A DNA stretch of 24,000 nucleotides. Source: Patescibacteria group bacterium. GTDB taxonomy: Bacteria > Patescibacteriota > Minisyncoccia > Phycocordibacterales > DATDSR01. Position 1 is the first letter of the stretch, and every line of letters starts with the position of its first letter. The notes under the pieces are model-generated. The model was not told the origin of the DNA. It saw nothing but the letters and a program-made list of their open reading frames with translations, and did no database searches. The stretch covers positions 11,748-35,747 of the forward strand of contig JBBTXQ010000052.1 of assembly GCA_038062165.1 (NCBI GenBank), written 5' to 3'. This document shows, one piece after another, positions 1,012-20,609 of this stretch. The translations under genes and the position numbers were made by a program.

Positions 1012-2115
1012 CTATTCTACCACGCCACCACCAAGACAGATATTGCTGTCATAAAACACAATTGACTGGCCGGGGGCTACAAGAACTGGCTGTTTGAATG
1101 TGACAGTGTTCCCACTTACTGTGCAGGGTAGCTTCTCGCCGTGGTAGCGGACCTGACAGGTACTAGGTACTAGGTCATAGGTATTAGGTTGAGAACCGGA
1201 GATCCAGTTTATATCTTTGAGTTTTATATCCCTCCTTTGCCCTCCCTTATTATAAGGGAGGGTCGGGGTGAGATGATTCTTTGTCACAATGAGTAGATTT
1301 TTCTCAACATCTTTACCCACCACATACTGTCCCAATATTTTCTCACCTAAGGTGTAAAACAGCGCTCCTTCATGTTCACCAATCACTTTTGTTCGAGCCC
1401 CGGCCTCGAACACTTTACCGGGCTTTGTTTTTATGTAATGTGATAGGAATTCTTTCATATCTACGTCGCCCAAAAAGCATATCCCTTGCGAATCTTTCTT
1501 GCTTGCGACCGGCAGCCGCAGCTGCCTCGCAAGCTCCCTAACTTCACTTTTCAATAAGTGCCCCACTGGGAAAATATTTTTTGATAGTTGATCTTGTGTG
1601 AGTGTCCACAAGAAATAACTCTGATCTTTAGCAGGATCAACTCCACGAAGTAGCTGTATCTCTCCCCTGCCCTCCCTTAACATAAGGGAGGGTGAGGGTG
1701 GGATAATCTGCGCATAATGCCCCGTGGCAATCGCATCAGCACCCATCTCGAGCGCTTTACGCAGAAATGCGCCGAACTTAATCTCTTTATTGCACATCAC
1801 ATCCGGGTTGGGCGTGCGACCGGACTTATATTCACTAATCATGTAATCCACCACACTCTCTTTATATTCTTTTTCTAGGTCTATTGTTACAAAGGGAATG
1901 TCTAAATGTGCCGCCACGCGCATGGCATCACGTCGCTCATTTCTCCAAGCGCAGCTTGCTCCGCGAAGCCCTGCCTTGCCGGCAGGCAGGTTTAGCGAAG
2001 CAGGAGGCGTCCATGTCTTAATAAAAGCACCCAAAACTTGAGCGCCTGCGCGTTTTAATAGTGCCGCTGACACAGCACTATCGACTCCGCCAGATAGGCC
2101 AATCATAACTCTCAT
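1012..2115 (-). CDS. mnmA: tRNA 2-thiouridine(34) synthase MnmA
   Basis: 367-aa ORF with the PP-loop GLSGGVDSAV and the motifs GRTPNPDVMCNKEIKFGAF, ATGHYA, KDQSYFL and DSQGICF. Confidence 0.93.
   Translation of the reverse strand: MRVMIGLSGGVDSAVSAALLKRAGAQVLGAFIKTWTPPASLNLPAGKAGLRGASCAWRNERRDAMRVAAHLDIPFVTIDLEKEYKESVVDYMISEYKSGRTPNPDVMCNKEIKFGAFLRKALEMGADAIATGHYAQIIPPSPSLMLREGRGEIQLLRGVDPAKDQSYFLWTLTQDQLSKNIFPVGHLLKSEVRELARQLRLPVASKKDSQGICFLGDVDMKEFLSHYIKTKPGKVFEAGARTKVIGEHEGALFYTLGEKILGQYVVGKDVEKNLLIVTKNHLTPTLPYNKGGQRRDIKLKDINWISGSQPNTYDLVPSTCQVRYHGEKLPCTVSGNTVTFKQPVLVAPGQSIVFYDSNICLGGGVVE
1154..1188. repeat. tandem heptamer repeat (TnnTAGG x5) inside mnmA
   Basis: TGACAGG TACTAGG TACTAGG TCATAGG TATTAGG, translated as PNTYDLVPSTCQ. 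Confidence 0.75.
1240..1262. repeat. palindrome CCCTCCCTTA-nnn-TAAGGGAGGG, copy 1 (in mnmA)
   Basis: 10-nt perfect arms with a 3-nt spacer and G/C-rich flanks (CCTCCTTTG / TCGGGGTGAG). Confidence 0.85.
1670..1692. repeat. palindrome CCCTCCCTTA-nnn-TAAGGGAGGG, copy 2 (in mnmA)
   Basis: The arms are identical to copy 1 and the flanks are similar (CTCCCCTG / TGAGGGTGGG). It is read in a different frame from copy 1. Confidence 0.85.
1970..1990. repeat. GC-rich palindrome CCTGCCTTGCCGGCAGGCAGG (in mnmA)
   Basis: Near-perfect 21-nt palindrome encoding NLPAGKAGL. Near-identical copies lie at 7590-7610 and 19928-19947. Confidence 0.9.
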
Positions 2116-2144
2116 GCCCTACAGTCTATATCAAAAAAGCCACT

Positions 2145-2741
2145 TTACGCATCAGAATTTATTTCTACGTTCATAAGCTTCTGATATACCGACAGACACG
2201 CCCGTGCGTCCGATAGGGCAGTATGGGCGTTATTGTTGGTAATGTCATAATATTGACATAGGCTCCGGAGAGCATACGATTCAAGCATCACGTCTCCCCC
2301 GAGCACCTTCTTAGAGATTGAGTATGTGTCTAACGAATGTCGCGGACTCCATGTAAAGCCGTGTCGAGCGAAGAATGCAGCAAGCATAAGTATGTCGAAA
2401 TGCACTACATGTCCGGCTACCACTACAGAGTTCATTTTTGGATCTTCGTTTAGAGGCTTATAGAGAATGGATAGCAGTGTCTGGTAGGCTTCCTGTGGCG
2501 ACAGGGCTCTAGTCCAATCATCCGGTGTATATTTGTTAATACGGAATGCTATCGGATCGGCAAGTTCTGGGTGATCAGGCTTAATTTTTATTTCAAGTTC
2601 GCGTAACAACTTGTGAGTAAGTTGTTTGCCGCTGCGAGTTTCCTTAACTTCCACGATTCCTACAGATATGATCTCGTGCCGACGATGATCTAACCCTGTG
2701 GTCTCGGTGTCGATAAAGTGAATAATATAATCAGATGCCAT
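2145..2741 (-). CDS. DEDDh 3'-5' exonuclease (DnaQ/epsilon-like)
   Basis: 198 aa with Exo I FIDTETTGLD, Exo II GHVVHFDILML and Exo III HTALSDARA. Confidence 0.8.
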   Translation of the reverse strand: MASDYIIHFIDTETTGLDHRRHEIISVGIVEVKETRSGKQLTHKLLRELEIKIKPDHPELADPIAFRINKYTPDDWTRALSPQEAYQTLLSILYKPLNEDPKMNSVVVAGHVVHFDILMLAAFFARHGFTWSPRHSLDTYSISKKVLGGDVMLESYALRSLCQYYDITNNNAHTALSDARACLSVYQKLMNVEINSDA

Positions 2742-3516
2742 ATTTTTTTCTGTTCGCGTTATGCTCCTCGAATGTAACTGCGTAATGCGTTACGCCTGAT
2801 TCATCTGATAAATAGTATAAGTATTTTGAGGCTGTGGGAAACCTGACTACATTTATTGCATCGAGTCCCGGATTAACTATGGGTCTCTCTGGTAAACCAA
2901 TTATGTCATAAGTTTCTGGTGCAACGTCAACCTGTAGTGGCATGCTTAATTTTAATCGCTTTTGAAGTATTCCGGCAATCAATTTTCTATCAATACGACT
3001 ACTTGCTTCTTCCTCAACAATAGATGCCAAAATAAGATCTCGATAATCTATTTCCCCAACCTTAGTTTTGAAATTAGATATCATCGTGTCTATAATTTCA
3101 TCAAGAGTAAAGAATTGATCGAAAAAATATGTATCTGGAAACAAGTAGCCCTGAAAATCCTTGCCAATTTCCATTCCGATTATTTCACTGATCTGCGCAT
3201 TACTCGATCCCTCCGGGATAGTTATTCTACGTATGATTGTCCCATAATCACCATTGTGTACACGCAAGAGAACTGCTAGTAGGTCAGCGCGGTGCTCGAA
3301 AACATAACGTCCTGCTTTTAGATCGTCACTTAGACCAGTAACTCTAGAGATAATTTTGAACAAAGCTACAGATCTAATTACTTTTTGATCCTTCAACTCA
3401 CCTGCTACATCAGCGCCCTTTCTTATTTCAACTTTTTGATTGATTGGGAAGTCGCTAGGCGCGCTAACTGAACCAAACATTAATACCAGTACAAGTATGA
3501 AAAAGACCCATCTCAT
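2731..3516 (-). CDS. mltG: endolytic murein transglycosylase MltG (YceG-like)
   Basis: 261 aa with an N-terminal TM helix and the motifs LKAGRY, ITIPEG, LFPDTYFF, ASIVEEEA, PLQVD, GLPERPIVNPG and HYAVTFEEH. Confidence 0.85.
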   Translation of the reverse strand: MRWVFFILVLVLMFGSVSAPSDFPINQKVEIRKGADVAGELKDQKVIRSVALFKIISRVTGLSDDLKAGRYVFEHRADLLAVLLRVHNGDYGTIIRRITIPEGSSNAQISEIIGMEIGKDFQGYLFPDTYFFDQFFTLDEIIDTMISNFKTKVGEIDYRDLILASIVEEEASSRIDRKLIAGILQKRLKLSMPLQVDVAPETYDIIGLPERPIVNPGLDAINVVRFPTASKYLYYLSDESGVTHYAVTFEEHNANRKKYGI

Positions 3517-4769
3517 CAGACAGGCAGACCTACCTGTCCGGTAGGCAGGTTAGCGGGGGCTTCGGATTTTTTAGATTCGATTCTTGGAAGACCTCCAGAG
3601 GTAATTACACCACCGGGGAAATGAAAAATAGTGGCTAATTCTTCAGTATTAAGCACAAATGGTTTGAATTTGTACGGCGGATAGAAATAGCTGCGCGTTC
3701 TATACGCATCAAGCATCATATACTTGAGCCAGCGCATTTTCTTTTTTGTAATTCCCAACCAACCCTGTATAACAGCATCGTCACTCGTGCTCAAATCACT
3801 CTTAAAACCGTTGAGATTAAGCGTTGCGTATTGCGCAAACAAGTTGATTAGAGAGAGCTGGTGTGAAAGTTGATATTTATCTTTGGGCGCGGCATATATC
3901 ATGCGTATTCCGCAATCGAAGCCAATCTTTGAGATGCTCCTCTCAATTGCTTTTACAACATCCTGCTCACCCGGTGAAAGTTTAAGTTGTCCCAATTCAA
4001 TCTTGATTGCTCCATCTTTATCCTTTTTTGTAGTCTCACCTTTCTTGTCCATAAGTTTTTTAACCAGATCTGCCCCTTCGTCTTTCCAGCCTTTCTTCTT
4101 TTTCCAGAAGCCGGGTACCGGCACTCTATCCTTGGCCGCCTGCACAAGTATCTGAATACCGGCGTACTCGCCAGCTCCAAGTGATCCAAGATACTCGATA
4201 GTAGGCGTGAGTGGATCAGTTTTCATTTCCTCCTTGAGCGACATATTATCCAAGCCGTAATCCACATAAGTCTTAATTGGGTACGGGTCCGGCATGGCCA
4301 GCTTGAGCTGTGCGCCGTAGAAGCTCCAACCCTCACTTTCGCTTGATTTGATCAAATGTACATAATCCTCTGCTTCGCGAACCTCGATATCTCCATACTG
4401 CGCATATATCTGCGACTCTATTAAATGTTTGAAAAGTTTGAGAGTGCGGATATAGAAATGCATTCTGCCTTCAATGCTCACCATCTCCAGAGTGAACCAT
4501 GTGCGAAGTGAGCCTTCAACGAGTCTAGTCCACCATGTGCCCGAATAACCTTGAGCAAATGCGCCGAAGATAATCTCCATAGATTGTGGAGATTTGAAAA
4601 TTTCTTTCGGAAGTATAACTTCAAGCAGTACCCAGGGTTTACCGTGGAAAATATTTTTCATTTGGACAAAACGTTTCCAAACAATCCACAGTACTACGCA
4701 AATAACCGGGACTAATATAAACGGCAGGACATAAACAAGATAAGGTAAAAGAATATCAAGAACACTCAT
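3516..4769 (-). CDS. hypothetical protein with N-terminal TM helix and a Lys-rich internal segment
   Basis: 417-aa ORF with coding-like composition. Its stop overlaps the mltG start (TGATG). I recognise no family. Confidence 0.65.
   Translation of the reverse strand: MSVLDILLPYLVYVLPFILVPVICVVLWIVWKRFVQMKNIFHGKPWVLLEVILPKEIFKSPQSMEIIFGAFAQGYSGTWWTRLVEGSLRTWFTLEMVSIEGRMHFYIRTLKLFKHLIESQIYAQYGDIEVREAEDYVHLIKSSESEGWSFYGAQLKLAMPDPYPIKTYVDYGLDNMSLKEEMKTDPLTPTIEYLGSLGAGEYAGIQILVQAAKDRVPVPGFWKKKKGWKDEGADLVKKLMDKKGETTKKDKDGAIKIELGQLKLSPGEQDVVKAIERSISKIGFDCGIRMIYAAPKDKYQLSHQLSLINLFAQYATLNLNGFKSDLSTSDDAVIQGWLGITKKKMRWLKYMMLDAYRTRSYFYPPYKFKPFVLNTEELATIFHFPGGVITSGGLPRIESKKSEAPANLPTGQVGLPV
3519..3549. 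repeat. degenerate CCTGCC/GGCAGG-type nested inverted repeats at a gene junction
   Basis: GACAGG..CCTGTC and CCTACC..GGTAGG, followed by GGCAGG. It encodes the C-terminal NLPTGQVGLPV plus the stop. Confidence 0.6.
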
Positions 4770-4788
4770 AGTGAAATAATACCACAGA

Positions 4789-5826
4789 TTATCCTACCAG
4801 TGAGTATTTGCCTTTTACGTCTTTTCTGAAATAGCGAGGATTCTGAAGGTTGACGTAGATTGTGTTCTCCTTTACCTGACGTTGTTTGAGTACCTCCTTT
4901 ATCAAATCTTCTTTACTAAGTGCATTCTTTTCCTTAAGAATACTCTTGATCACATCGCGGACAACACCGTTTGTGTAGCCCCATTCTGATAGAGCGTACA
5001 GACCACGTCCAACTAGCACGAATCTGTCGTCCTTTATTAGTTCGTTGTGGGTAGTAGCTTTGTGGGCGCTCTTACCGAACCACTTTTCGATCTGCTCGGC
5101 CACTTCTGTGAAGTGGAGTGGCTTGCCATGCTTACGCAAAACAAGATATGAATAGTCGCGAATACCTCGAGTGCGTATGCTTGGCGAATCTGCAAGCCCC
5201 CACTCGCCCAAAACATTCGCGCCAATATTCTTCGAGAGCTCTAGCCATTTACGGGCTTGCTCTTCACTCACATATTTTTCTAAATCAGCCTTTAGGTGTT
5301 CCGCGAAGCGCTCAATCATTTCAGCTTCAGCGATTAAATCATCCTTGTTCAAGCCCTCATGAAGTGCTGTAAGGGCGCTGTGCACTTTTTCTGCCTCATC
5401 TTCATCCAATGTCCAACGATGATGGAAATTATCATCTTCCTTCAAACGCACGAACGAATCACCCAATTCAAGCATGAATGCAATTTGATTCTTGGTAACC
5501 TGATCCTTACCTAATTCATTCAAAATTATTTCTTCCTTCGCTAGGCCCCCATGGCCGGTAAGATAATCTTCAAGCTCCTCGAACACGGGAGTAGCCTTGT
5601 TATACTCATCGGATTTGCGAATTGTTTCCATTGCGAAGTTCTCGATCTGCCTAACGCGTTCACGTGTGATATTGTAGATCTCACCAATCGCCTCGAGGGT
5701 CATTGGTTCACCAGTTTTGCCAGCAAGTCCATATCTGCGTTCAATCACATCGCGAGCACGTTCAGGCAAACTAGTAAGGAGTGACCTAGTCACCTGTCCT
5801 GCCTTAAAATTAGGTTTAACTCCCAT
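4789..5826 (-). CDS. DNA-binding protein with an N-terminal sigma-70 region-4-like HTH and a C-terminal HARE-HTH-like domain
   Basis: 345 aa. RARDVIERRYGL..MTLEAIGEIYNITRERVRQIE is sigma-r4-like. The C-terminal PLHFTEVAEQI..DDRFVLVGRGLYALSEW resembles RpoE-delta/HARE-HTH. Sigma region 2 is absent. Confidence 0.65.
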   Translation of the reverse strand: MGVKPNFKAGQVTRSLLTSLPERARDVIERRYGLAGKTGEPMTLEAIGEIYNITRERVRQIENFAMETIRKSDEYNKATPVFEELEDYLTGHGGLAKEEIILNELGKDQVTKNQIAFMLELGDSFVRLKEDDNFHHRWTLDEDEAEKVHSALTALHEGLNKDDLIAEAEMIERFAEHLKADLEKYVSEEQARKWLELSKNIGANVLGEWGLADSPSIRTRGIRDYSYLVLRKHGKPLHFTEVAEQIEKWFGKSAHKATTHNELIKDDRFVLVGRGLYALSEWGYTNGVVRDVIKSILKEKNALSKEDLIKEVLKQRQVKENTIYVNLQNPRYFRKDVKGKYSLVG

Positions 5827-5848
5827 GTCCTAGTTTTATCATTATATA

Positions 5849-8320
5849 CTAATTTGTCAAGACGTTAAGCACTATCCCCGGCTTATATACAACCCGAAGA
5901 ACCTGCTTACCTTCAAGCCTCTTGGCTATAATAGGGCTAGACAGAGCCACTGTTTTAACCTCCTCCTCGCTTGAGTCACTGGACACAAATATGCTCCCGC
6001 CAATCCTGCTATTGATCTGAACTCGCAGATTTATCACATTTCCCTCTACTCCCGTTAGTTCACTCACTTGTGGCCATTTTTGTATATGGATAGAGTCAGT
6101 ATGACCCAATTGGTGCCATAATTCTTCGCAAATATGGGGTGCGAAAGGGGCAAGTAATTTTAAAAAAGTTTCTAGGTTATAGGTATTAGGTACTAGGTTT
6201 TCTAATTCCCGAGAAAGAATCATCAGCTTGCTGACAGCAGTATTGAATTTGAAGTTCTCTATATCAGAACTTATCCCTCTGATGTATTTACTTATTTTCA
6301 GATCTACGCTTTGGTTTTGAGTTTTGCGTTTTGAGTTTTGCGTTACCATCTTCCACACTCTCTCCAAGAATCTTCTGGGCCCAATTATCGCCTCATCATT
6401 CCACGCCACAGAATCTGCAAAGGGCCCCAGAAACATTTCGTACAATCTGAAGGTATCAGCTCCCCAACGCTCGATCACCTCATCAGGGTTAGCCACATTG
6501 CCCCAGCGCTTACTCATTTTGCGACCATCACTTGCGTGTATTAAACCAGTGCCGATTCTCTTTGAGAATGGCTCTATCGTACTCACTGCCCCAATATCAT
6601 AGAGAAACTTATGCCAGAAACGGGCATAGATTAAGTGCCTGGTCACATGTTCTGCGCCTCCCACGTACACATCAACCCCCGCCCAATATTTCTCAATTTT
6701 TTTGTCCACCAATACACCCTCGTTATGGGGATCCACAAAGCGCAAGTAATACCATGAACTACCGGCCCATTGGGGCATCGTGTTAGTCTCACGCCTGCCC
6801 TTGCCACCGCACTTGGGGCACTTCACGTTCACCCATTCTGGGATATCAGCGAGCGGTGACTCGCCTGTGCCAGTGGGCTCATAATGTTTAACCTCCGGCA
6901 ACTTAACAGGAAGCTCACTCTCTGGAACTGCCACTACTCCACATCCGCCAGTTGGCGGACTTCCCTTACCATCACAATGAATTAAGGGAATGGGCTCGCC
7001 CCAATATCTCTGTCGAGAGAAGACCCAATCACGCAACCTATACATCGTCACTCGTTTGGCCCATTTGTTTTCAATCACATATTCTGCGATCAGGTCGCGC
7101 AACTCTGCACCTGTTTTGCCAGATAAATTAAGTGGCTCGAGAAGGATGCCATTTTTCATATCTGAATAACACACTTCAAAATTTTCTACCCTCTTTTTTA
7201 ACTCCTGATCTTGTGGGACTAAAACAATCTTAATGGGTATATTATATTTTTTCGCAAATGCGAAATCTTGCTCGTCATGCGCAGAACACTTAATCACACC
7301 TGTCCCGTAATCTGTAACGGCAAAGTTCGCCACCCAGATTGGCAAATGGCCGTTACCAAGCGGATCGTCTAGGAATCGCCCAGTGAACACTCCTTCCAAC
7401 TCTCCTGTTTTGTATTTATCTTGTAAGCGCTTGATATTTATTTCCTCTACCTTATTTCTTATTTCTTTTTCTCCTTCTACTCCCTTTATCAAATCATCTA
7501 ATAATGCGTGATCTGGAGCAATCACAACAAATGTGTCGGCGTAACAGGCCTCGTAGTGCGCGCTGAATGTCTCAAGTTCTATTTTAGTACCTGCCTTGCC
7601 GTCAGGCAGGTCTTTAACTCTGGCCTTGAAAAGTAATCCATCCGATTTGCCAATCCACTGTCTCTGACCTTCTTTGATAAACTCCGGCCAATTAAGTGCT
7701 TCCAAATCATCCAGTAATCTATCTGCGTATTTTGTTATTTTTAGGACCCACTGTCGCATGGGCTTCTTGACCACCTGTGAGCCGCATCTCTCGCATTTCC
7801 CATTTTCAAGATCCTCATTGGCAAGTCCTGTCTGACATGACGGGCACCAGTTGATAGGCTCGTTACTCTCGTATGCCAGACCCTTTTTAAACATCTGTAA
7901 GAAGATCCACTGCGTCCATTTATAGTAATCCGGATCAGTTGTATTGATCTCGCGCGACCAGTCGTAATCAGGACCAATCAAGTTTAGTTGCGATTTGAAT
8001 CTGGCAATATTCTGCTCTACTGCTTCTCTGGGATGGATCTTGTGTTTGATAGCATAATTCTCGGCAGGCAAACCAAATGCATCCCAGCCCATCGGATGCA
8101 AAACAGAATACCCCTGCATCCGCTTCATTCGGGCGTATATATCAGTGGCTATGTGCCCTTTTAGGTGACCAACGTGCAGACCCTCACCCGAAGGATAAGG
8201 GAACTCATTCAGAACGTAAAATTTGGGTCTGTCTTGATCTTCGCTAGACTTGTATATTCCCGACTCTGCCCAAATCTTCTGCCACTTTGCCTCTATCTTT
8301 TTTGGATCATACTCGCTCAT
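5849..8320 (-). CDS. leuS: leucine--tRNA ligase
   Basis: 823 aa with the HIGH motif (PYPSGEGLHVGHLKGH), the KMSKS motif (GRKMSKRWGN), and RDWVFSRQRYWGEPIP. Confidence 0.95.
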   Translation of the reverse strand: MSEYDPKKIEAKWQKIWAESGIYKSSEDQDRPKFYVLNEFPYPSGEGLHVGHLKGHIATDIYARMKRMQGYSVLHPMGWDAFGLPAENYAIKHKIHPREAVEQNIARFKSQLNLIGPDYDWSREINTTDPDYYKWTQWIFLQMFKKGLAYESNEPINWCPSCQTGLANEDLENGKCERCGSQVVKKPMRQWVLKITKYADRLLDDLEALNWPEFIKEGQRQWIGKSDGLLFKARVKDLPDGKAGTKIELETFSAHYEACYADTFVVIAPDHALLDDLIKGVEGEKEIRNKVEEINIKRLQDKYKTGELEGVFTGRFLDDPLGNGHLPIWVANFAVTDYGTGVIKCSAHDEQDFAFAKKYNIPIKIVLVPQDQELKKRVENFEVCYSDMKNGILLEPLNLSGKTGAELRDLIAEYVIENKWAKRVTMYRLRDWVFSRQRYWGEPIPLIHCDGKGSPPTGGCGVVAVPESELPVKLPEVKHYEPTGTGESPLADIPEWVNVKCPKCGGKGRRETNTMPQWAGSSWYYLRFVDPHNEGVLVDKKIEKYWAGVDVYVGGAEHVTRHLIYARFWHKFLYDIGAVSTIEPFSKRIGTGLIHASDGRKMSKRWGNVANPDEVIERWGADTFRLYEMFLGPFADSVAWNDEAIIGPRRFLERVWKMVTQNSKRKTQNQSVDLKISKYIRGISSDIENFKFNTAVSKLMILSRELENLVPNTYNLETFLKLLAPFAPHICEELWHQLGHTDSIHIQKWPQVSELTGVEGNVINLRVQINSRIGGSIFVSSDSSEEEVKTVALSSPIIAKRLEGKQVLRVVYKPGIVLNVLTN
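6170..6197. repeat. tandem heptamer repeat (TnnTAGG x4) inside leuS
   Basis: TTCTAGG TTATAGG TATTAGG TACTAGG, translated as NLVPNTYNLE. Confidence 0.75.
6314..6341. repeat. exact 14-nt tandem duplication inside leuS
   Basis: GTTTTGAGTTTTGC x2, translated as TQNSKRKTQNQS. Confidence 0.8.
6944..6959. repeat. palindrome TCCGCCAGTTGGCGGA inside the leuS zinc knuckle
   Basis: 7-bp arms. The surrounding codons give HC-DGKGSPPTGG-CGVV where LeuRS homologues have HCxxCG. Confidence 0.65.
7590..7610. repeat. GC-rich palindrome CCTGCCTTGCCGTCAGGCAGG (in leuS)
   Basis: 20/21 identical to the mnmA copy. It encodes DLPDGKAGT in the same frame. Confidence 0.9.
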
Positions 8321-8986: not shown

Positions 8987-9889
8987 TCAAATCCTGAATT
9001 CGATTACGTCTCCGTCTTTGACTATGTATTCTTTGCCTTCGGTACGCACTAGGCCCAATTCTCGCGCTTTGGCATAACTACCGCTTTTCATTAAATCATC
9101 ATACGCCACTACTTCTGCGCGAATGAATTTGTCGCGAAAATCTGTGTGGATGGCCGCGCCCGCTTCGGGCGCAGTACTGCCCGCTGGGATAGTCCATGCT
9201 CGCGTCTCATCCTCACCAGTAGTAAAGTAGCTAATTAAGCCTAGCAATTCGTAACTTGCTTTTATCAGCTTATCCAGATCCTCGCCAGAAGTGGCATCAA
9301 CATGGACAGAAACCTGATTTCCATTTTTACTTAGGATCCCGGATCCCGAGTTAGGTAGTACGTTATCTCCGACATGAGTGACATTTAATACATACAGAAC
9401 AGGTTTAGTGGCGAGCAAGTTCAGCTTCTCTTCTTCTTTACCCTTCTCCTTCATTTTAGCTTTGTGTTTTTCGACTACATCAAGATCAGCGAGCTCCAAC
9501 TCTGTCTTGATCACACCAATATCACTTTCGGGATCAAGTTTATTATCTACATGAATAATAGTAGAGTCGTCGAAGCAACGCACGACGTGAGCAATAGCAT
9601 CTACCTCGCGAATGTGTGACAAGAATTGATTGCCCAGGCCTTCGCCCTTGCTCGCGCCCCTCACAAGTCCGGCGATATCTACGAACTCGATCGCCGCCGG
9701 AACAATTTTGCGGGATGAACTAAACTCTGCGAGTTTAGCAACCCGCGTATCTGGAACTGCCACGACCCCAACAGATGGATCAATCGTGCAAAAAGGATAA
9801 TTCTCCATGGGCACCCCCTTCTTGGTAAGCGCGTTGAAAAGCGTCGACTTTCCCACATTCGGCAGACCCACAATTCCTATCTTAAGCAT
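8987..9889 (-). CDS. ychF: ribosome-binding ATPase YchF (short form)
   Basis: The start is moved to the ATG at 9889 ([22 protein letters not shown], the G1 motif). It has DIAGLV and a C-terminal TGS-like segment ([37 protein letters not shown]). The upstream part of the track ORF is not protein-like. Confidence 0.85.
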
Positions 9890-9892
9890 AGG

Positions 9893-9920
9893 TTGACAAT
9901 TTAACACATGAGAGTAGTTT
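9893..9920 (+). promoter_or_regulatory. sigma-70-like promoter for the small plus-strand gene
   Basis: TTGACA (9893-9898), a 16-nt spacer, then TAGTTT (9915-9920). SD GGGAGG at 9928-9933 lies 8 nt before the ATG at 9942. Confidence 0.45.
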
Positions 9921-9941
9921 TGCGAATGGGAGGAACACAAA

Positions 9942-10202
9942 ATGGCATGGCTACTGAAAAGTGACAAAAAACACATGCACAAGCATGCAGAGATGAATGA
10001 GGAGAAGAATGGCTGGCAGTGCAAGAAGACCAAAAAGCCGATCAACACAGTGCGCACGGGCCGGAGCATCCACGTGGCCGGCTTCTCGGGCGGATTCGGT
10101 GAGGTACGGCAGGTTGACCACCTTTGGTGCACCGGCTGCGACACACAGCCCGAGATCCGCTACGGCGAGCCGATCCAGGAGAACGAGCTCGTCGAGATCT
10201 AA
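9942..10202 (+). CDS. small orphan protein (86 aa), Lys-rich N-terminus, three Cys (C..CxxC)
   Basis: Supported by a promoter, an SD and a strong intrinsic terminator. Amino-acid composition is balanced, unlike the overlapping frames. It is visibly GC-richer than its flanks. Confidence 0.55.
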
Positions 10203-10213
10203 CTCGAGCATTA

Positions 10214-10241
10214 CCGGAAGGACGGTCCTTCCGGTTTTTTT
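10214..10241 (+). terminator. intrinsic terminator, probably bidirectional with murA
   Basis: CCGGAAGG-ACGGT-CCTTCCGG followed by T7. The murA stop (10240-10242) abuts the T-run. Confidence 0.7.
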
Positions 10242-11559
10242 ATAACTTTTTTATGTCGGCTCCGAGTTTGGTTAGTTTGCCTACGATGTCTTCGTAGCCA
10301 CGAGCTATGTGATCTTTAGGATCTCTGATCACACTCTCACCTTTTGCAAATAACGCGGCAAGTAGCACATCAATGCCGGCTCTCACGTCATGAGAATTCA
10401 ATTCTGCGGGTTTAAGTTCTGTGGGGCCAAATATGCGAGCGGCATGCGGTTCAGTACTTTCGAATTCACTTTGATTGAAATTATACCCGGAAGGATCATC
10501 GTCTTCTGGCCGGTAGAGCTCGTAGTGCACGCCCATCTTACCTAGTTCACGAAGGCAACTCCAACGCTTCTCGAAGATGCGCTCGTGTATTGTGGACACA
10601 CCCTCACCCACCACTGCCGCAAGCAAAGCCATAAGTGGTTGCCAGTCAGTCATAAATCCAGGATGCACATCAGTCACAATATCCACTTTTTTATTTTTTT
10701 TGAATTCATTTAATTTTTCTGTAAAAGCTGTCAAGAATTGTGGCTCGATATTCCTAACCTCGATCGTATCACCGGCAAGTTCATTCAAGACAAGCGCCGT
10801 AGCCGCTTCAAGTCTGTCATACATCGACTTAGTCGCCTTGCCACTAAGTAACTTTTTCACTCCAGTAATCCTAATGTGCCTATCATCCTCACGTGCAATT
10901 TTTGCGCCCATAGAATTAAGTGTGTCGATCAAGTTATCTACTTCTGGCTCAAGCGCGCAGTTCTCAAGCAGCACTTCGCTCGGATTAAAAACTGCGGCTA
11001 GTATCAAGCTCTCTGTTCCCGTATGTGTATTCTTCTCAAACCTGTACCGACTCTGTCCCGAAGACCAGGTCTTCGCGAAGACCTGGTCTTCGTGGGAGTC
11101 TTCGTGCGTGCGTGCAAGAGTTATGTCTGTGTAGACTCCGTCTTGTTTGATCTCGCCACCAAGTGCCTCAATACCGGCAAGTAATCTATCAATTGGCCGT
11201 TTACCAATCACGTCACCGCCCAAGAGTGGCATTCTTACCCTGCCCATGCGAGCAAGCATCGCGCCAATGAAGAGCACAGACTGCCGCGCACTCATTGCGC
11301 TCTCGGGTATCTCAATTTGTTTAATGTCCAGACATGTAATTCTCCATGAATGCGCGTCTAATTGCTCTACTTCGCCACCAAGAATCTCGATAGCCTCAGC
11401 AATCTTGCGAGTATCTGGAGAGTCAGGAATATTCTTGAAAGAGCAAGACTGATCGGTAAGGAGTGCGCTAATTAGCAATTTAGGTCCAGCATTTTTAGCC
11501 CCAGAAACTTCATAAACCCCGCTTAACTTTTTTCCACCATTGACTAGATATGTTGACAT
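10240..11559 (-). CDS. murA: UDP-N-acetylglucosamine 1-carboxyvinyltransferase
   Basis: 439 aa with GAKNAGPKLL, LGGDVIGKRPIDR, HPGFMTDWQP and RGYEDIVGKL. Confidence 0.93.
   Translation of the reverse strand: MSTYLVNGGKKLSGVYEVSGAKNAGPKLLISALLTDQSCSFKNIPDSPDTRKIAEAIEILGGEVEQLDAHSWRITCLDIKQIEIPESAMSARQSVLFIGAMLARMGRVRMPLLGGDVIGKRPIDRLLAGIEALGGEIKQDGVYTDITLARTHEDSHEDQVFAKTWSSGQSRYRFEKNTHTGTESLILAAVFNPSEVLLENCALEPEVDNLIDTLNSMGAKIAREDDRHIRITGVKKLLSGKATKSMYDRLEAATALVLNELAGDTIEVRNIEPQFLTAFTEKLNEFKKNKKVDIVTDVHPGFMTDWQPLMALLAAVVGEGVSTIHERIFEKRWSCLRELGKMGVHYELYRPEDDDPSGYNFNQSEFESTEPHAARIFGPTELKPAELNSHDVRAGIDVLLAALFAKGESVIRDPKDHIARGYEDIVGKLTKLGADIKKL
11059..11092. repeat. 34-nt perfect palindrome made of two 17-nt palindromes, inside murA
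   Basis: CGAAGACCAGGTCTTCG followed by CGAAGACCTGGTCTTCG, translated as EDQVFAKTWSS. Confidence 0.85.
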
Positions 11560-11564
11560 CCATT

Positions 11565-12311
11565 TTATTTAGTGGACCGTACCGGACTTGAACCGGTGAC
11601 CTCTCGCATGCCATGCGAACGCTCTACCAGCTGAGCTAACGGCCCTTTCAAAATTGATATTGGTATTGCTTCTAGTTCCTGTTGTACAAGTGTGCCTCCA
11701 GAGGACACAACGCATACACCCTTATAATCCACGTTCTTCGTAATTTTACCGATTGTTCTATGATCGGGCTTGCTATCATAGAATCTATTAATCTTAATAC
11801 CTGTTATTTGTGACCAGTATTGCTTGAGAGAGCCAATATCCTGATCAGCACGGTAGCAAATGTAACATCCCAATTTAGTCTTGTCTATTCCGTAGCATAT
11901 CTTTAATAACGATATATACAACAGAATTATATTAGGATCTGAGCTACCGAGTTGTAATCCTCTGTGTGATTTCCATTTAGCACCCTCTCCAAGGTATAAA
12001 AACGCAAGAGCAAGCTTCATAAGCAATGGGGTCCAATTAATATTTTCGATCCAACCCTGAATAGTGCGATCTACGGCTCTTCTAATATTAGCTCTATTTT
12101 CATTATTCATCGCTATTGCTCTATCTCGGGCAATAACTAGAAATTTATCCTGCCTGCTCTTTAGTCGGCTAATTGCTCTTCGATTTAATTTTGTGCCACT
12201 AAGCCATCCGGAAAGCGTACTTTTTGAAACCTTCAACTTAATACTTATTTCTCCATAAGTCATTCCACTTTTGCGAAGCTTAACAGCTGTTAATTTTGTA
12301 CGAGTTTTCAT
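11565..12311 (-). CDS. HTH plus single-motif LAGLIDADG-like protein (putative homing endonuclease); the ORF runs through tRNA-Ala
   Basis: The N-terminal LRKSGMTYGEISIKLKVSKSTLSGWL is an HTH. LALAFLYLGEGAKW resembles a LAGLIDADG helix with an acidic residue. The last ~27 codons are the tRNA gene itself, and there is no stop before it. Confidence 0.5.
   Translation of the reverse strand: MKTRTKLTAVKLRKSGMTYGEISIKLKVSKSTLSGWLSGTKLNRRAISRLKSRQDKFLVIARDRAIAMNNENRANIRRAVDRTIQGWIENINWTPLLMKLALAFLYLGEGAKWKSHRGLQLGSSDPNIILLYISLLKICYGIDKTKLGCYICYRADQDIGSLKQYWSQITGIKINRFYDSKPDHRTIGKITKNVDYKGVCVVSSGGTLVQQELEAIPISILKGPLAQLVERSHGMREVTGSSPVRSTK
11573..11645 (-). tRNA. tRNA-Ala (anticodon GGC)
   Basis: Manual cloverleaf: GGGCCGT acceptor with G3:U70, D arm GCTC/GAGC, anticodon loop ATGGCAT, T loop TTCAAGT. 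No encoded CCA. Confidence 0.9.
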
Positions 12312-14930: not shown

Positions 14931-14941
14931 GATAGCACCTG

Positions 14942-15565: not shown

Positions 15566-15568
15566 ATA

Positions 15569-15641
15569 TGGACCCGAGCGGTTTCGAACCGCTTACCTCC
15601 GCATTGCAAATGCGGCGCTCTACCAATTGAGCTACGGGCCC
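15569..15641 (-). tRNA. tRNA-Ala (anticodon UGC)
   Basis: GGGCCCG acceptor with G3:U70, D loop AATTGGTA, anticodon loop TTTGCAA, T loop TTCGAAA. Confidence 0.9.
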
Positions 15642-15662
15642 AACGGAAATGTTATAGCACAA

Positions 15663-16553
15663 TTATGCCCTGCTGACGATATGTTTCAGAAACTCGCGCA
15701 GAGATGAGCCAACTGCTTTGAGTGAGTTACTCAAGTGATACTCGGGGCCGAGGGGCGGCAAGGGATCGACTTCGAGCACTATCGGACCGCGGCGGGTAAA
15801 AATTATGTCTGTGGAGGAGTAGTGTCGCAAGCCGAGAGCTTTGTGGGCAGTAATTGCAATTTCACTTGCCAGATTTCTGTCTTCTCGCGAGAGCATACGG
15901 GGTTGAGTGAGACTTAGGTTATCTATGGGCAGGAGTGTGTAATCTCGCTTACCACGGAAGCCTTCGATGAACACAACTTTGACCTCCGGACCCTGAAGGC
16001 GCTCCTCGACCAAAACTTTTTTGTAATTAAGGAGACTGCGAACTAGAGTTTCTGCCAGATCTCTTTGCGCTCTAACTATTTCTATTCCTTGCGACATCGT
16101 GCCGAAGAGGGGCTTGACTACATACTGCCCGCCCATATTCCGATGCAATTCATCTGTCACATCGTACGGATCTCGTAGCGTATCTACAACAACTCCCATC
16201 GGAACAACAAGGCCAGCCCTTGTAAGGATATTTTTGGCAAGATTTTTATTGAAGGTGAGAGATAGAGCTGTTGGTTGTGAGCCGGTATAACGCGCGCCGA
16301 TCATATCAAGGACTCGCACCGCTTGACCATCCTCTCCGTACGAGCCGTGCAGGGCATTCACAAACACATCCGCTTGATTGAGGAGTCTTATGGGCTGAAT
16401 CGACAATCCTCCCTTATACCAGAGTCCATCGCGATCTATAAATATGTCAGTGGGATTGTGATCAGCGCGCAAGTTCTCAAGTGCGTGTTGTCCAGACTCA
16501 AGAGAAGTCTCATAAGCATCACTCGGTCCACCCCGCAGTACTGCAATCCGCAT
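15663..16553 (-). CDS. ddl: D-alanine--D-alanine ligase
   Basis: 296 aa with an ATP-grasp layout: MRIAVLRGGPS, ALHGSYGEDG, VVKP..GTMSQGI and a C-terminal LEVDPLP. The start overlaps the uvrC stop by 1 nt. Confidence 0.85.
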   Translation of the reverse strand: MRIAVLRGGPSDAYETSLESGQHALENLRADHNPTDIFIDRDGLWYKGGLSIQPIRLLNQADVFVNALHGSYGEDGQAVRVLDMIGARYTGSQPTALSLTFNKNLAKNILTRAGLVVPMGVVVDTLRDPYDVTDELHRNMGGQYVVKPLFGTMSQGIEIVRAQRDLAETLVRSLLNYKKVLVEERLQGPEVKVVFIEGFRGKRDYTLLPIDNLSLTQPRMLSREDRNLASEIAITAHKALGLRHYSSTDIIFTRRGPIVLEVDPLPPLGPEYHLSNSLKAVGSSLREFLKHIVSRA

Positions 16554-17821
16554 TACTTAATCCTATCACGAATTAGTATGTGGTAATTAATCGCGAATCT
16601 GTGAGCTTCTTGATTGGTTATCAAAATATCGTGATGATAATTCTTCACAATCTGCGCATCTCCGATTATGTGATCTGGCTTATGTTTGTCATTTTTTACT
16701 ACCGACACAATTTCGGGTTTGCAAATTGCAAATTGCTCCTTGCTCATTGCTAAGCGAGCAATTGCGAGTTGAGCCCTGCCGCCGTCAATGACAATGAGAT
16801 CCGGCATGCGCCATTCGGTATGCTTGAAGCGTCGCTCTAGCACTTCCTTAAAACTACCTACATCGTTATTTGTGTGAGTACGAATCTTGAAACGCTTGTA
16901 CTCGTGCCGAGCCAGCACGCCATCCTCCATGACCACCATCGAGCCAACAGTATTCGTGCCAGATATGTGAGCTATATCATAAGCCTCGATCCTAAATCCC
17001 CTCTCATTCTCACTTAGTCGCCTTGCCTCTAAGTTGCGCTTATAGAGTACGACGTCGTTGATGTGCTCGAGTGCGAAAATTTTATTGCGCAACTCTGCCG
17101 CCTTCTCAAAAATTCTCAATTTAGCTGCCTGCTTCATGTGCTTGCGCAAGCCTCGCAGGATCTCTTGTTTCTTGCCCTGAAAAAATAGACTGATGCTCCT
17201 GATAACTTTTGCATACTCTCCTTTTGAGATCTCGCCCGTGCACACTCCCGGGCACAATCCAATCTGGCGATTGAAGCACGGCCTACAGTGGCCTTGCCGC
17301 TCACTTAGCGGCAAGGCCACTAAGTCACAGGGTGTACACTTGACATCGCGGAACGGAAAGATCCGGCGGATAATCTTGAGCGCTTCGCGTAGTTCTAGAC
17401 CATGCGGGAAAGGTCCGAAAGTAGATGCTAGATCATAGGTACTAGTTGCTAGGCTTGATCCCCGAACCACTAATACTCTGGGAAACTCTTCTCTTGTTAT
17501 CACTACATAATTAAATGTCTTGCCATCTTTCTCATCAGAGTTGCCTATGGGTTGATACTTTTTGATAAGCGCCGCCTCAAGGATGAGCGCCTCGAGCACA
17601 GAATCAGTAACTTTAAAGTCTATGCCGGCTGCCTGCTCAAGCATCTTCACGATCTTGGGCCCCCGCGTCTCAAGCAAATCCTTTGCAAAATAACTCTTAA
17701 CCCGAGAGCGTAAGCTAGTCGCCTTGCCAATATACAAAATTTCACTCCCCTTCTTAAAAATGTAAACTCCCGGCCTATCCGGCAGTCCTTTTACTTTGGC
17801 ACTTGACATCATATTGGCCAT
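16553..17821 (-). CDS. uvrC: excinuclease ABC subunit C, short form without the C-terminal (HhH)2
   Basis: GIY-YIG domain (PGVYIF..ILYIGKATSLRSRVKSYF), UVR domain (FEKAAELRNKIFALE) and RIEAYDIAHISG. The start is moved to MANMM (17821); the track extension lies in a structured GC-rich element. Confidence 0.85.
   Translation of the reverse strand: MANMMSSAKVKGLPDRPGVYIFKKGSEILYIGKATSLRSRVKSYFAKDLLETRGPKIVKMLEQAAGIDFKVTDSVLEALILEAALIKKYQPIGNSDEKDGKTFNYVVITREEFPRVLVVRGSSLATSTYDLASTFGPFPHGLELREALKIIRRIFPFRDVKCTPCDLVALPLSERQGHCRPCFNRQIGLCPGVCTGEISKGEYAKVIRSISLFFQGKKQEILRGLRKHMKQAAKLRIFEKAAELRNKIFALEHINDVVLYKRNLEARRLSENERGFRIEAYDIAHISGTNTVGSMVVMEDGVLARHEYKRFKIRTHTNNDVGSFKEVLERRFKHTEWRMPDLIVIDGGRAQLAIARLAMSKEQFAICKPEIVSVVKNDKHKPDHIIGDAQIVKNYHHDILITNQEAHRFAINYHILIRDRIK
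17288..17320. repeat. 33-nt hairpin (14-bp perfect stem) in frame inside uvrC
   Basis: GTGGCCTTGCCGCT-CACTT-AGCGGCAAGGCCAC, translated as LVALPLSERQGH. Confidence 0.85.
17426..17453. repeat. tandem heptamer repeat (TnnTAGn x4) inside uvrC
   Basis: TGCTAGA TCATAGG TACTAGT TGCTAGG, translated as SLATSTYDLAS. Confidence 0.7.
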
Positions 17822-17838
17822 TATACTAACATGGCAAT

Positions 17839-17987
17839 GGGCAGGTCTCGAGAACGGGTATCGGTCCGGGTCCAACTGTTAAGGGCCACGACCTGGCGCG
17901 CAGGCACATGAGGGGAGTATTCACTTTTCACCTCTGGCCTGGAGAGTCTCCGGCCGGAGCAAGCGCGCTCGATCACGGGACCTGCCC
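17839..17987 (-). other. GC-rich structured element closed by a long-range inverted repeat, immediately 5' of uvrC
   Basis: GGGCAGGT(CTCGAG) at 17839-17852 pairs with (CTCGA..)ACCTGCCC at 17968-17987. The inner helices are GCGCGC/GCGCGC, CAGGC/GCCUG and GAGG/CCUC. Confidence 0.4.
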
Positions 17988-18056
17988 TTTTCATCAAAAT
18001 AATATACTTTCTCGCAACACGGGGGCCCAGGAGGTCCCCTTAGTGATTTTAAAGAC

Positions 18057-20609
18057 CTACTTTTTCAGAACTCTGCGTAGATACTTTGCGGTGTGAGATA
18101 TGTGTGTGGTGGGCAGGAAGGAAATATCCCGAGGTGTGCCTTTGGCTACAATCTTGCCGCCCTCATCGCCGCCTTCGGGACCCATGTCTATTATCCAGTC
18201 ACATGATTTGATCATATCCATGTTGTGCTCTATTACTATCACTGTATTGCCCCTATTTACCAATTTTTGCAAAATTTCTATAAGCTTTTTTACATCTTCG
18301 TAATGCAAGCCTACCGTTGGCTCATCTAAAAGGTAAATAGTTTTTGTAGTAAGAGGTCGGTATAACTCTGAACTAATTTTCACCCTCTGCGCTTCGCCAC
18401 CAGAAAGAGTTGTGGCACTCTGGCCAAGTTCGAGATAACTAAGACCAACACTATCAAGTGAATTTAGACGATCAGAGATGGCCGGGATATCTTCGAAGAA
18501 TTTAACTGCCTCCTCTACTGTCATCTTCAGAATCTCGTGAATATTCTTTTTCTTATACGTGACTTCAAGCGTATCTTTATTGAAGCGCTTCCCGCCGCAG
18601 ACGTCGCAAGGCACATAGACAGTGGGCAGGAAGTGCATCTCGACAGCTATCTCTCCATTCCCTTCACAGGTCTCACAACGGCCACCGTTCTTAACGTTGA
18701 ATGAAAATCTTGATGGCCCCCAACCTCGAAAGCGTGCCTCTTCCGTTTCGGCGAAAATATCGCGTATATGCGACCAAGCCCCTGTATAAGTGGCTGGGTT
18801 GGATCTGGGTGTACGGCCAATGGGGCTCTGGTCTATCAAGATCGCTCGACCCAGATATTCAGTGCCCGAGAATGTGCCCACATTGTAAATTTGATTTGAT
18901 CTGTAACGACGATCAAATTTGGCTTGCAGATTCTTGTGCAAGATCTCGTAGAGGAAGCTGGACTTGCCCGAACCAGACACGCCAGTAAGAGCGACCAGCC
19001 TACCCAATGGCACTTCAATATTTAAATTTTTAATGTTAAATACATTGCCACCTTGAATTTTTATCGCGCCCTTATCTTGCGTACGATACTCATCAGGAAG
19101 TTCAACTCTTTGTTCACCGCGCAGATAATCAACTGTTGTTGAGTTAAATGTGTTCTTTTTGGCAGTTAACAAATGCTCTGTCCAGTTGGCCACAACTATC
19201 TTACCCCCGTGCACGCCGGCGCCCGGGCCAATATCTACCAAGTAATCGCTCGAAAAAATTGTGTCCTCATCATGTTCTATCACAATAATTGTGTTACCAA
19301 GATCGCGCAACTCGTGCAAGGTCTTGATAAGCAAATCATTATCGCGGCTATGCAAGCCAATAGTAGGCTCATCTAGTACGTAGAGCGTACCCACTAAACG
19401 TGAGCCCAACTGGGAAGCTAGTCTGATTCTTTGCGCTTCGCCGCCCGAAAGTGTGTTGGCCCTCCGATCGAGAGCTAAATAACCTAGACCAACGTCGTTC
19501 ATGAATTTAAGCCGTGATTCGATTTCCTTAATTACCACAGCACTAATCCCCTTCTCGCGGACAGTTAACCTAGTCTTGCTGAAAAACTCAATTGCATCGC
19601 GAATAGCCAGCGCGCTCACTTGCACTATGTTCTTATTCCCAATGAGCACAGCCAGAGCCTCTTTGCGTAGTCTTACACCGGAACATTCTTCGCATGGTTC
19701 TTCGCCAAACATATGCTTGGTGCCCAAGCCATGACAGACCGGGCATGCACCAAATGGAGAGTTGAATGAGAATAACCTTGGCTCAACTTCTGGAAACGAG
19801 AAGCCGTCCCGAGGGCACGAGAACTTACTCGACATCAAGAATTCGCTATCTTTCGAGATAATCATCACCACACCGTCCGCTTCATTCAGCGCCTTCTCTA
19901 CTGATTCTGACAATCTCTGTGTGAATTCCTGCCTGCCGGCAGGCAGGCTTTCCTCACTAGCATCCAGCTCGTCTACTAGTACTTCAATAGAGTGCTTCTT
20001 ATTTTTATCCAGAATTATCTGCTCGCGTAAGTTTTTAAAAACTCCGTCTACTCGCACTGTTCTGTAGCCTTTGTTAAGTAGATCATAGAGAAGCTGATAG
20101 TATTCGCCCTTTCTGCCTCGCACAACCGGCGCAAGTATCTTCACATTTCCCGAAACCGGGTTTCGGGAATCCTTAGAAACCCGGTTTCTGATTGCGTTTA
20201 TTATCTCTTGGGGCGCGAGCTTCTCGATCTCTTGCCCACACACCAGACAATGCGGCCGGCCAATACGCGCATATAAGACGCGCAAGTAATCATAAATTTC
20301 TGTAATCGTGGCGACAGTTGATCTGGGATTATTTGAACGCGACTTCTGGTCAATCGAGATTGCAGGGCTAAGTCCCTCTATCTCGTCTACATCGGGCTTC
20401 TGCATTTGCCTAATAAACTGCCTCGCGTACGAGGAGAGCGACTCGACATAGCGCCTCTGACCTTCGGCGAAGATAGTGTCGAAGGCCAAACTTGACTTGC
20501 CCGATCCAGAGAGACCTGTGAAGACAACCATCTTGCCCCGTGGCAAGTCCACGTTTACATTCTTAAGATTGTGGGTGCGAGCACCCTTTATTTTGATCCA
20601 GTCCTGCAA
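18057..20609 (-). CDS. uvrA: excinuclease ABC subunit A (850 aa, insertion domain apparently absent)
   Basis: Two ABC modules ([18 protein letters not shown], and LSGGEAQR twice) plus zinc modules (CxxC pairs). Confidence 0.95.
19928..19947. repeat. GC-rich palindrome CCTGCCTGCCGGCAGGCAGG (in uvrA)
   Basis: Perfect 20-nt palindrome, equal to the mnmA/leuS element minus one T. It encodes SLPAGRQE. Confidence 0.9.
20148..20189. repeat. two adjacent related palindromes inside uvrA
   Basis: TCCCGAAACCGGGTTTCGGGA (20148-20168) and AGAAACCCGGTTTCT (20175-20189), translated as [15 protein letters not shown]. Confidence 0.8.

Follow-up and report, generated by a model that had tools for sequence, protein, structure and literature searches.

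The window analysed here, a stretch of 24,000 nt from contig JBBTXQ010000052.1 of a Paceibacteria genome, holds three to four copies of a 20–21-nt GC-rich palindrome that we call family A, together with a second hairpin family, family B, and several further hairpins. Every gene of the window is encoded on the minus strand, and Pfam assigns the open reading frames (ORFs) at 1012-2115, 5849-8320 and 18057-20609 to MnmA, LeuRS and UvrA, respectively, while ORF 3516-4769 was identified through a syntenic relative as a DUF8128-family protein. The family A motif, CCTGCC(T)TGCCG(G/T)CAGGCAGG, occurs at 1970-1990 (mnmA), 7590-7610 (leuS) and 19928-19947 (uvrA), and a degenerate relative ends the DUF8128 gene. 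The features are as follows.

1970..1990, minus strand: family A 21-mer in mnmA, CCTGCCTTGCCGGCAGGCAGG; coding strand CCTGCCTGCCGGCAAGGCAGG; read LPAGKAG
1953..2000, minus strand: 48-nt composite of family A, GCGAAGC direct-repeat flanks and a short quasi-palindrome; peptide SLNLPAGKAGLRGAS
7590..7610, minus strand: family A 21-mer variant (centre G>T) in leuS, CCTGCCTTGCCGTCAGGCAGG; read LPDGKAG
19928..19947, minus strand: family A perfect 20-mer in uvrA, CCTGCCTGCCGGCAGGCAGG; read LPAGRQ
3519..3549, minus strand: degenerate family A relative at the C-terminus and stop of the DUF8128 ORF; hairpin CCTACCGGACAGGTAGG, stem CCTACC/GGTAGG, both arms changed

Coordinates and sequences of the three copies agree exactly with the original prediction, a note made from the sequence before this work, and translation of the coding strand reproduced the peptides it had given (NLPAGKAGL in mnmA, DLPDGKAGT in leuS and SLPAGRQE in uvrA); all three copies are read LP(A/D)G(K/R). 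The degenerate relative indeed supplies the end of ORF 3516-4769: it encodes NLPTGQVGLPV*, which amounts to six extra C-terminal residues in comparison with the syntenic relative L177. Nucleotide identity across the non-homologous genes reaches 20/21, and 100 dinucleotide-preserving shuffles of the window gave an expectation of 0.00 matches to CCTGCC-N(4-12)-GGCAGG. The element is GC-rich (80% GC), as had been claimed, but the background is not AT-rich, since GC in the window ranges from 41 to 50% and is about 46% overall.

Each copy in mnmA, leuS and uvrA coincides with an insertion of 7-11 residues that is missing from orthologues. For this comparison we used solved structures, the syntenic contigs L177, L180, L181 and L182, whose MnmA proteins are 61-68% identical to that of the window, and 120 MnmA homologues, all of them Paceibacteria- or Patescibacteria-like; one Paceibacteria-like MnmA, P0100, is 54% identical to the window protein. 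The mnmA copy lies inside an 11-residue insertion relative to MnmA in the PDB. Where the window protein has 25 residues, 100 of the 120 homologues carry the 12-residue stretch TW.P[DE][FW]L.C, and LPAGKAG was found in none of the 120. The leuS copy adds seven residues in comparison with the Thermus thermophilus LeuRS structure, and its junctions are sharp: the filled site reads AAA GA[CCTGCCTGACGGCAAGGCAGG]T ACT, while L177 and L180 are empty at this position (AAR GAT followed by AYN), so that the gain is exactly 21 nt, inside one GAT codon and without target duplication. In uvrA the insertion comprises eight residues (24 nt) relative to the Bacillus stearothermophilus UvrA structure. An empty site was also found for a perfect 20-mer in the N-terminus of a HAD hydrolase in L180, where the copy adds seven residues (20 nt plus 1), is read LPAGRQ, and is lacking from L177 and L182. 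The gaps in the structures at the palindromes and the empty sites in syntenic relatives confirm the lineage-specific insertion that had been proposed.

The inserts occupy loops. The AlphaFold model of the window MnmA has a mean predicted local distance difference test score (pLDDT) of 85.8, which falls below 50 solely at residues 45-54 and 283-291 and dips to 61 at residues 141-150. These three segments are exactly the three hairpin-derived inserts of the protein (one of family A and two of family B), although the aligned homologues are without insert segments and the low confidence there is hence partly built in. Residues 45-54 and 283-291 are modelled as coil, and 142-148 as a short helix. 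As a separate observation, the window UvrA (18057-20609) aligns with that of B. stearothermophilus in two blocks, residues 3-298 with chain positions 22-303 and residues 301-849 with 419-957, and about 115 residues of the solved protein are missing from it.

Family A is dispersed far beyond the window. We scanned one genome per species in GTDB (596 Gb) with the pattern CCTGCC-N(0,1)-TGCC-NN-CA-N(0,1)-GGCAGG and obtained at least 120 stretches, from which 8-kb chunks were taken as loci. About 0.5 occurrences of the exact 20-mer would be expected in 596 Gb if uniform composition is assumed; it is present in at least 92 loci. Although the two central bases were left free, the perfect palindrome CCTGCCTGCCGGCAGGCAGG makes up 95 of the 117 plus-strand matches listed, and the 21-nt variant 11 of these 117. 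Most of the chunks from elsewhere hold one perfect copy and degenerate ones. Carriers include many classes of Patescibacteria, among them a curated complete WWE3 genome; metagenome-assembled genomes (MAGs) of Omnitrophota, Planctomycetota, Chloroflexota, Nitrospirota-like bacteria and Ignavibacteria; and cultured Bacteroidota, for example Winogradskyella echinorum, Flagellimonas yonaguniensis, Longitalea luteola, Aquiflexum lacus and Agriterribacter humi. In the IMG/VR contigs, the viral collection that we searched, 56 stretches were found with 42 perfect copies at 35 viral-contig loci, with a maximum of six copies on a single contig (29.5 kb). Control palindromes of the same length and composition, either arm-swapped (GGCAGGCAGGCCTGCCTGCC) or permuted, gave no match in this collection. 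Set against the chance expectation, these counts bear out an element dispersed well beyond chance. The 48-nt composite is shared as well: an ATP-dependent DNA ligase gene in L020 matches the window mnmA at 92% identity over 48 nt, and an intergenic copy next to a tRNA in L014 matches it at 90% over 42 nt.

Two side observations concern the carriers. Membrane proteins of WWE3 (L055, position 2000) and Daviesbacteria (L059, position 3381) hold the identical 20-mer at apparently the same position, GLPAGRQG[NE]IF..., in flanks that are diverged yet homologous; this reflects either recurrent insertion at one site or an old, conserved insertion. Records named 'TPA_asm uncultured Gammaproteobacteria' carry taxon labels that are not to be trusted for the host range of family A.

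The three frames of the 20-mer give PACRQAG, LPAGRQ and CLPAGR, and LPAGRQ alone is without Cys. The LPAG(R/K) frame is used in every Pfam-confirmed gene copy elsewhere, namely in genes for FtsK (inside the ATPase domain), a dTDP-glucose-dehydratase-like epimerase (RfbB), MurB, an ATP-dependent DNA ligase, a PMT-type glycosyltransferase and the HAD hydrolase. Two Bacteroidota copies in the same frame encode part of the N-terminal linker of secreted or lipoprotein-like proteins (the lipoprotein reading was made by eye), one of them a Pfam-confirmed GH3 hydrolase. The 21-nt variant is common among coding copies and a minority overall, as selection for preservation of the frame would produce. Constant phase had been attributed to selection on either the peptide or the phase of insertion. 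Because the phase used is the sole Cys-free frame of the three, selection on the peptide and on insert length suffices and accounts for it most simply; a bias in insertion phase may or may not contribute in addition.

Copies outside the window are mostly intergenic. Family A is a bare perfect palindrome, CCTGCCTGCC abutting GGCAGGCAGG, with two 10-nt arms; in its 20-21 nt it forms an 8-bp stem with a 4-nt loop, and the predicted RNA stability of the 20-mer is -13.9 kcal/mol. No duplication longer than 2 nt accompanies 141 of the 148 copies. Larger hairpins (stem of at least 6 bp) enclose 12 of 93 copies, compared with 1.5 in a control with shuffled flank pairs, and family A is nested within itself in L024, L054 and L027. 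Within 200 nt of a family A copy, the density of other small GC-rich hairpins is about double that farther off, and the loci also contain many degenerate copies. Many of the Bacteroidota and phage-contig copies are found amid short degenerate tandem repeats, and at positions 3926-4135 of one viral contig (L173, IMGVR_UViG_3300025106_000007) ten or more 21-nt units, CCATGCCTACCGGCAGGCAGG, a family A variant, are arrayed in tandem. Tandem repeats of 6-9 nt surround the intergenic copies in L134, L154, L156, L121, L067, L075, L043 and L107, and some such repeats have their inverse complement further downstream. Abutting inverted pairs of 21-mers, giving a 42-nt palindrome, occur elsewhere (also in L144 and L171).

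The element was also found in tRNA genes or fragments, where it occupies the D-loop in L111, L167, L021 and L049 and the variable loop in L123 and L157, for example:

L157, 2239-2330: accepted by ARAGORN as a 92-nt tRNA-Met whose long variable arm is the palindrome
L111 (Agriterribacter humi): palindrome within the D-loop of a tRNA-Arg(TCT)
L021, 4020-4225: tRNA 5' part, palindrome, complete tRNA-Met and then the matching tRNA 3' part
L049, 2106-2150: family A in a tRNA region, D-loop

Two possible origins were rejected. An origin from a tRNA anticodon arm was discarded on the ground that the five tRNAs of the window show no similarity to family A; with Rfam covariance models, these five tRNAs alone reached the gathering score in the window and no family A match was obtained. 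Family A does not appear to represent the collapsed ends of a larger transposon either, as isolated 10-nt half sites in 1.45 Mb proved to be degenerate full copies rather than distant pairs.

From these results, it is probable that the 20-21-nt palindrome is a widespread miniature hairpin repeat, comparable to repetitive extragenic palindromes (REPs), Rickettsia palindromic elements (RPEs) and the small dispersed repeats (SDRs) of cyanobacteria, and filtered by selection for frame and loop position. The proposal of a tiny duplicative hairpin element tolerated by coding sequence thus finds support in the lineage-specific insertions, the dispersal beyond chance and the constant frame. New copies would be pasted with sharp ends into intergenic DNA, the loops of other hairpins, family A itself, tRNA D-loops and variable loops, and genes; in this Paceibacteria genome they would have landed in mnmA, leuS, uvrA and the 3' end of the DUF8128 gene. 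Copies persisting in genes would be those that add a multiple of three, as a 21-mer or as a 20-mer with 1 or 4 bases, that lie in a tolerant surface loop, and that are read in the sole frame free of Cys and stops (LPAGRQ or LPAGKAG); translation of the insert would presumably give a short loop rich in Pro and Gly.

Dispersal, insertion, sharp junctions, the constant frame, the position in loops and survival at tolerant sites alone are shown directly by the data, while the way in which copies are made is inferred. Our best guess is that the element moves as a single-stranded hairpin during replication, and there are two candidates for the putative copying machinery. The first is a trans-acting enzyme of the HUH type or like a REP-associated tyrosine transposase (RAYT), acting on hairpins in single-stranded DNA. 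It is favoured by insertion without duplication, by the hairpin targets and by the company of family B, which is tagged and REP-like (see below), and disfavoured by the lack of a tag and of a conserved target and, as far as the flanks were searched, of such a gene. The second is template switching of the polymerase between copies during replication or repair, favoured by heterogeneous junctions, occasional flanking duplications, nesting, tandem arrays and the minimal genomes. Here the copies would first have to be seeded horizontally; the viral copies are plausible vehicles, and phages may carry the element between hosts. Switching between the two arms would also preserve their complementarity.

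Several results weigh against a mobile repeat of this kind. No mobilising enzyme was found: tblastn with approximate IS200 TnpA/RAYT queries yielded no match in the window and a single weak one in the 1.45 Mb of flanks. There is no GTAG/CGTC tag and no flank consensus among 93 copies, the sole bias being A at position -1 (40%), and the only 6-mers enriched in the flanks derive from the palindrome itself, in copies that are nested or lie next to one another. The junctions are heterogeneous, with adjacent direct repeats of 7-14 nt in 7 of 148 copies against about 0.1 expected, and do not fit a single transposase chemistry. An element tied to a specific enzyme would hardly keep one identical sequence across phyla without frequent transfer. 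A BLAST search of cultured phage and plasmid records (9.6 Gb) gave no perfect copy, all matches having at least one mismatch or being shorter than 20 nt. Several MAG taxon labels are unreliable, for example that of L020 (CAYHQC010000077.1), labelled Gammaproteobacteria. Finally, we observed no empty/filled polymorphism within one population, represented by the three near-identical strains L177-L179 from different samples, whose only differences are four internal indels (7-24 nt), all non-palindromic and one consisting of Ns. These indels include lengths of 19, 20 and 24 nt, and that of 20 nt splits a sigma-factor-like gene in L179. Separately, a uniform target-site duplication was considered and rejected, given that the leuS junction is without any and that the adjacent repeats (7 of 148 copies) vary in length.

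Of the other explanations, the one that survives best, although we regard it as unlikely, is that the hairpin is kept for a nucleic-acid function (ribosome pausing, transcript stability, termination, or a binding or uptake site) and has spread by selection rather than by selfish copying. Part of the evidence for it comes from family B. A scan of metagenome contigs that left one stem pair free found this family in at least 120 contigs, and it was not found in viral contigs; the one-sided tail GGGGTGAGTTAT is present in 92 of the 124 copies listed, and in this respect family B looks like a tagged, classical REP. The two copies in the window, both in mnmA, are as follows.

1670..1692, minus strand: family B hairpin CCCTCCCTTAnnnTAAGGGAGGG, mnmA site B1; eight residues added relative to MnmA in the PDB; read PSLMLREG
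1240..1262, minus strand: second family B copy, mnmA site B2; six residues added; read in another frame, LPYNKGG; pLDDT below 50 at residues 283-291

The site B1 copy is common to five mnmA orthologues (61-68% protein identity). Its stems are perfectly complementary in all of them, being identical except for one C-G to T-A change on both arms, while the loops (TGT, ATT, ATG, TTT, TTGA) and the adjoining synonymous sites vary freely. Among 127 family B copies listed, the free stem pair is T-A in 77, C-G in 49, C-A in one and T-G in none. Furthermore, intergenic family A copies flanked by A/T runs resemble bidirectional terminators (L052, L093), and the predicted RNA stability given above also favours a nucleic-acid function. 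On the other side, the absence of G-T pairs fits complementarity at the level of DNA and not selection at the level of RNA. The two mnmA copies of family B are more alike within a genome than either is to the copy at the orthologous position in another genome, which implies turnover or conversion, and both copies in L180 have an extra GGACTTCGTCTCG sub-hairpin. Family A has no common gene context, occurs inside tRNAs and in either orientation, and commonly shows single mismatches in the inner stem that are not matched on the other arm; nor would a function account for copies reaching new sites. We conclude that the arm complementarity of family B is kept at the DNA level and that this family undergoes concerted evolution or turnover at permissive sites. 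A function as terminator or in mRNA structure is possible for some intergenic copies.

The other hairpins of the window bear on a further explanation, namely that the palindromes are not mobile and were each formed in place, adjoining DNA being copied in inverted orientation through replication template switching or foldback synthesis and the arms being kept identical afterwards. There are 16 distinct perfect hairpins with a stem of at least 8 bp (35 in the raw count that includes nested matches, against 0-9 in Markov shuffles), and at least seven that the original prediction had overlooked lie inside genes. The majority of the 16 are in genes and coincide with indels. In seven syntenic genes of three genomes, 37% of the internal indels of at least four residues carry a stem of at least 6 bp, compared with 5.6% of length-matched controls. 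The window features outside families A and B are these.

20147..20169, minus strand: unique 23-nt palindrome TTCCCGAAACCgGGTTTCGGGAA in uvrA; seven residues added relative to UvrA in the PDB; read SRNPVSG
11059..11092, minus strand: 34-nt perfect palindrome in murA, inside a 16-residue insertion relative to MurA in the PDB; read EDQVFAKTWSS
17287..17321, minus strand: 35-nt hairpin (15-bp stem) in uvrC, from the hairpin scan
2605..2626, minus strand: 22-nt hairpin in an RNase T-like exonuclease gene; eight residues added relative to L177
10213..10235, no strand assigned: intergenic 23-nt palindrome downstream of murA, terminator-like, from the hairpin scan

Many of the perfect palindromes are unique, without a second copy in the window and its relatives (11059-11092, 17287-17321 and 20147-20169, for example), which counts for an origin on the spot. 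Template switching is moreover a published route to perfect hairpins and to homogenisation of their arms (PMC8794818, PMC8604942, PMC5941160), and changes on both arms that preserve pairing are seen in CCTACC/GGTAGG at 3519-3549 and in the C-G to T-A change of family B. For family A, we nevertheless consider a local origin very improbable. It cannot yield one 20-mer in more than 130 unrelated contexts while the arm-swapped and permuted controls remain at zero; the inserted length is that of the whole palindrome and not of one arm, as the 21 nt gained in leuS illustrate; and one 48-nt composite occurs in different genes. For families A and B, template switching as a purely local source is excluded; for the single-copy palindromes it is possible.

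Two weaker explanations need little space. That the shared residues constitute a protein-level motif, convergent or ancestral, with the nucleotide identity as a by-product of codon usage, would agree with the constant frame and the loop-like, Pro/Gly-rich peptide, yet it is refuted by the copies in intergenic DNA and tRNAs, where most of those elsewhere are located, by the absence of the residues from orthologues and by the 20/21 nt identity across non-homologous genes, so that we give it almost no weight. A sequencing or assembly artefact (adaptor or chimeric junction) might be suspected because the carriers are mostly MAGs, and is just as improbable, as the palindrome is present in isolate genomes and the curated complete WWE3 genome, comes from many laboratories and assemblers, and is found in the interior of contigs, in frame and accompanied by point variants and degenerate copies.

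Further hairpins were noted in the relatives of the window and elsewhere. Downstream of murA each genome has a different perfect palindrome (23 nt at 10213-10235 in the window, 27 nt at L177 556-582 and 32 nt at L180 497-528), which looks like turnover of a terminator-like hairpin; that of L180 recurs at L180 19448-19483. A four-residue insert (PPAG) in ychF of L177 is the palindrome ATCCGCCAGCTGGCGGAT (L177 2311-2328). Its 16-nt core came up six times by chance in 0.85 Mb of the unrelated loci collected for family A. This third palindrome, TCCGCCAGCTGGCGGA, is present in unrelated genomes at sites that include:

L022, 160-175: third palindrome
L013, 3331-3348: third palindrome

Two gene calls in the window also call for comment. 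The ychF ORF at 8987-10144 has a GTG start and an N-terminus 84 residues longer than that of the L177 YchF; the extension is of low complexity, and the true start is probably near 9892. The 3' end of the ORF at 11565-12311, a weak match to HTH_23, coincides with the tRNA-Ala(GGC) at 11572-11645, and the boundaries or the reality of this ORF are doubtful.

As regards known systems, the original prediction had named RPEs and mitochondrial GC clusters as analogues, but these are not the only close ones. RPEs are palindromic repeats that housekeeping genes carry in frame and that are translated; RPE-1 measures about 100-150 bp and is restricted to Rickettsia. Family A shares the in-frame insertion but not the size, being 20-21 nt and present in several phyla. 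Miniature inverted-repeat transposable elements are likewise non-autonomous and built from inverted repeats, but they consist of terminal inverted repeats around an internal segment, with a target-site duplication of fixed length, whereas family A consists of abutting arms alone. DNA uptake sequences and uptake signal sequences resemble family A in the frame bias of coding copies and in nothing else: they are specific to a genome and reach about a thousand copies, whereas a single family A motif occurs in many phyla with few perfect copies per chunk. In 2008, Elhai et al. (Genome Res 18:1484) reportedly described SDRs of 21-27 nt that are nested in palindromes or other copies, and we know of no transposase for them. 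SDRs are very small mobile repeats, some of them palindromic, and with the reported size and nesting they would be the nearest match to family A in size and behaviour; their sequences are unrelated to it. SDR5 is described as possibly inserting at the highly iterated palindrome HIP1 and SDRs as confined to Nostocaceae (PMC5861425). For mitochondrial GC clusters, hairpin elements and coding palindromes, two papers describe GC-rich hairpins that spread in organelles, sometimes in coding sequence (PMC2800124, PMC6649704); in contrast to family A, these are organellar and comprise longer, lineage-specific families.

REPs, along with SDRs, also belong among the closest analogues. They are thought to be non-autonomous mobile DNA, 20-40 bp long, GTAG/CGTC-tagged and mostly intergenic, and some are found in frame in uvrA, uvrB, uvrC, uvrD, recBCD, polymerases and tRNA synthetases, where they add short peptides; CGTC REPs include some of the RPEs (Di Nocera et al., 2013, PMC3733652). 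REPs mobilised by a RAYT carry the unpaired tetranucleotide at one end, number tens to hundreds in a genome and go with a RAYT gene that REPs often flank. Family A is likewise a short hairpin-forming repeat. It differs in being a perfect palindrome without a GTAG/CGTC tag, conserved flank or unpaired tail, and in its identical sequence across phyla and in viral contigs. The assertion that the unit is far shorter than any known analogue was overstated in view of the published in-frame REPs, and in-frame hairpin insertion in uvrA and tRNA synthetases is already known. What is new is the bare 20-nt perfect palindrome, the occurrence of the same sequence across phyla and phages, the insertion into tRNA loops, and the weight of hairpins in the protein loops of Paceibacteria; a full-text literature search for the exact 20-mer found no paper.

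A bolder possibility, which we put forward tentatively, is that family A is the smallest self-propagating DNA known, copied without a transposase of its own through hairpin-mediated template switching in ordinary replication or repair and carried by phages from one bacterial phylum to another, and that together with other mini-hairpins it is a major source of loop insertions in the proteins and tRNAs of the candidate phyla radiation (CPR). If the palindrome is indeed a dispersed and apparently mobile repeat, the lower size limit of such DNA would drop to about 20 nt, and an exact sequence common to Patescibacteria, Bacteroidota, Omnitrophota, Planctomycetota and uncultured phages would pose the question of the copying agent; the cultured Bacteroidota carriers make mobility testable. 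Part of the variation in protein length among the tiny-genome CPR bacteria would be explained, a sizeable share of their lineage-specific loop insertions being translated hairpins and not adaptive additions, which would be of relevance for annotation, alignment and structure prediction. Such insertions would, moreover, constitute a natural experiment on the peptides and positions that essential enzymes tolerate.

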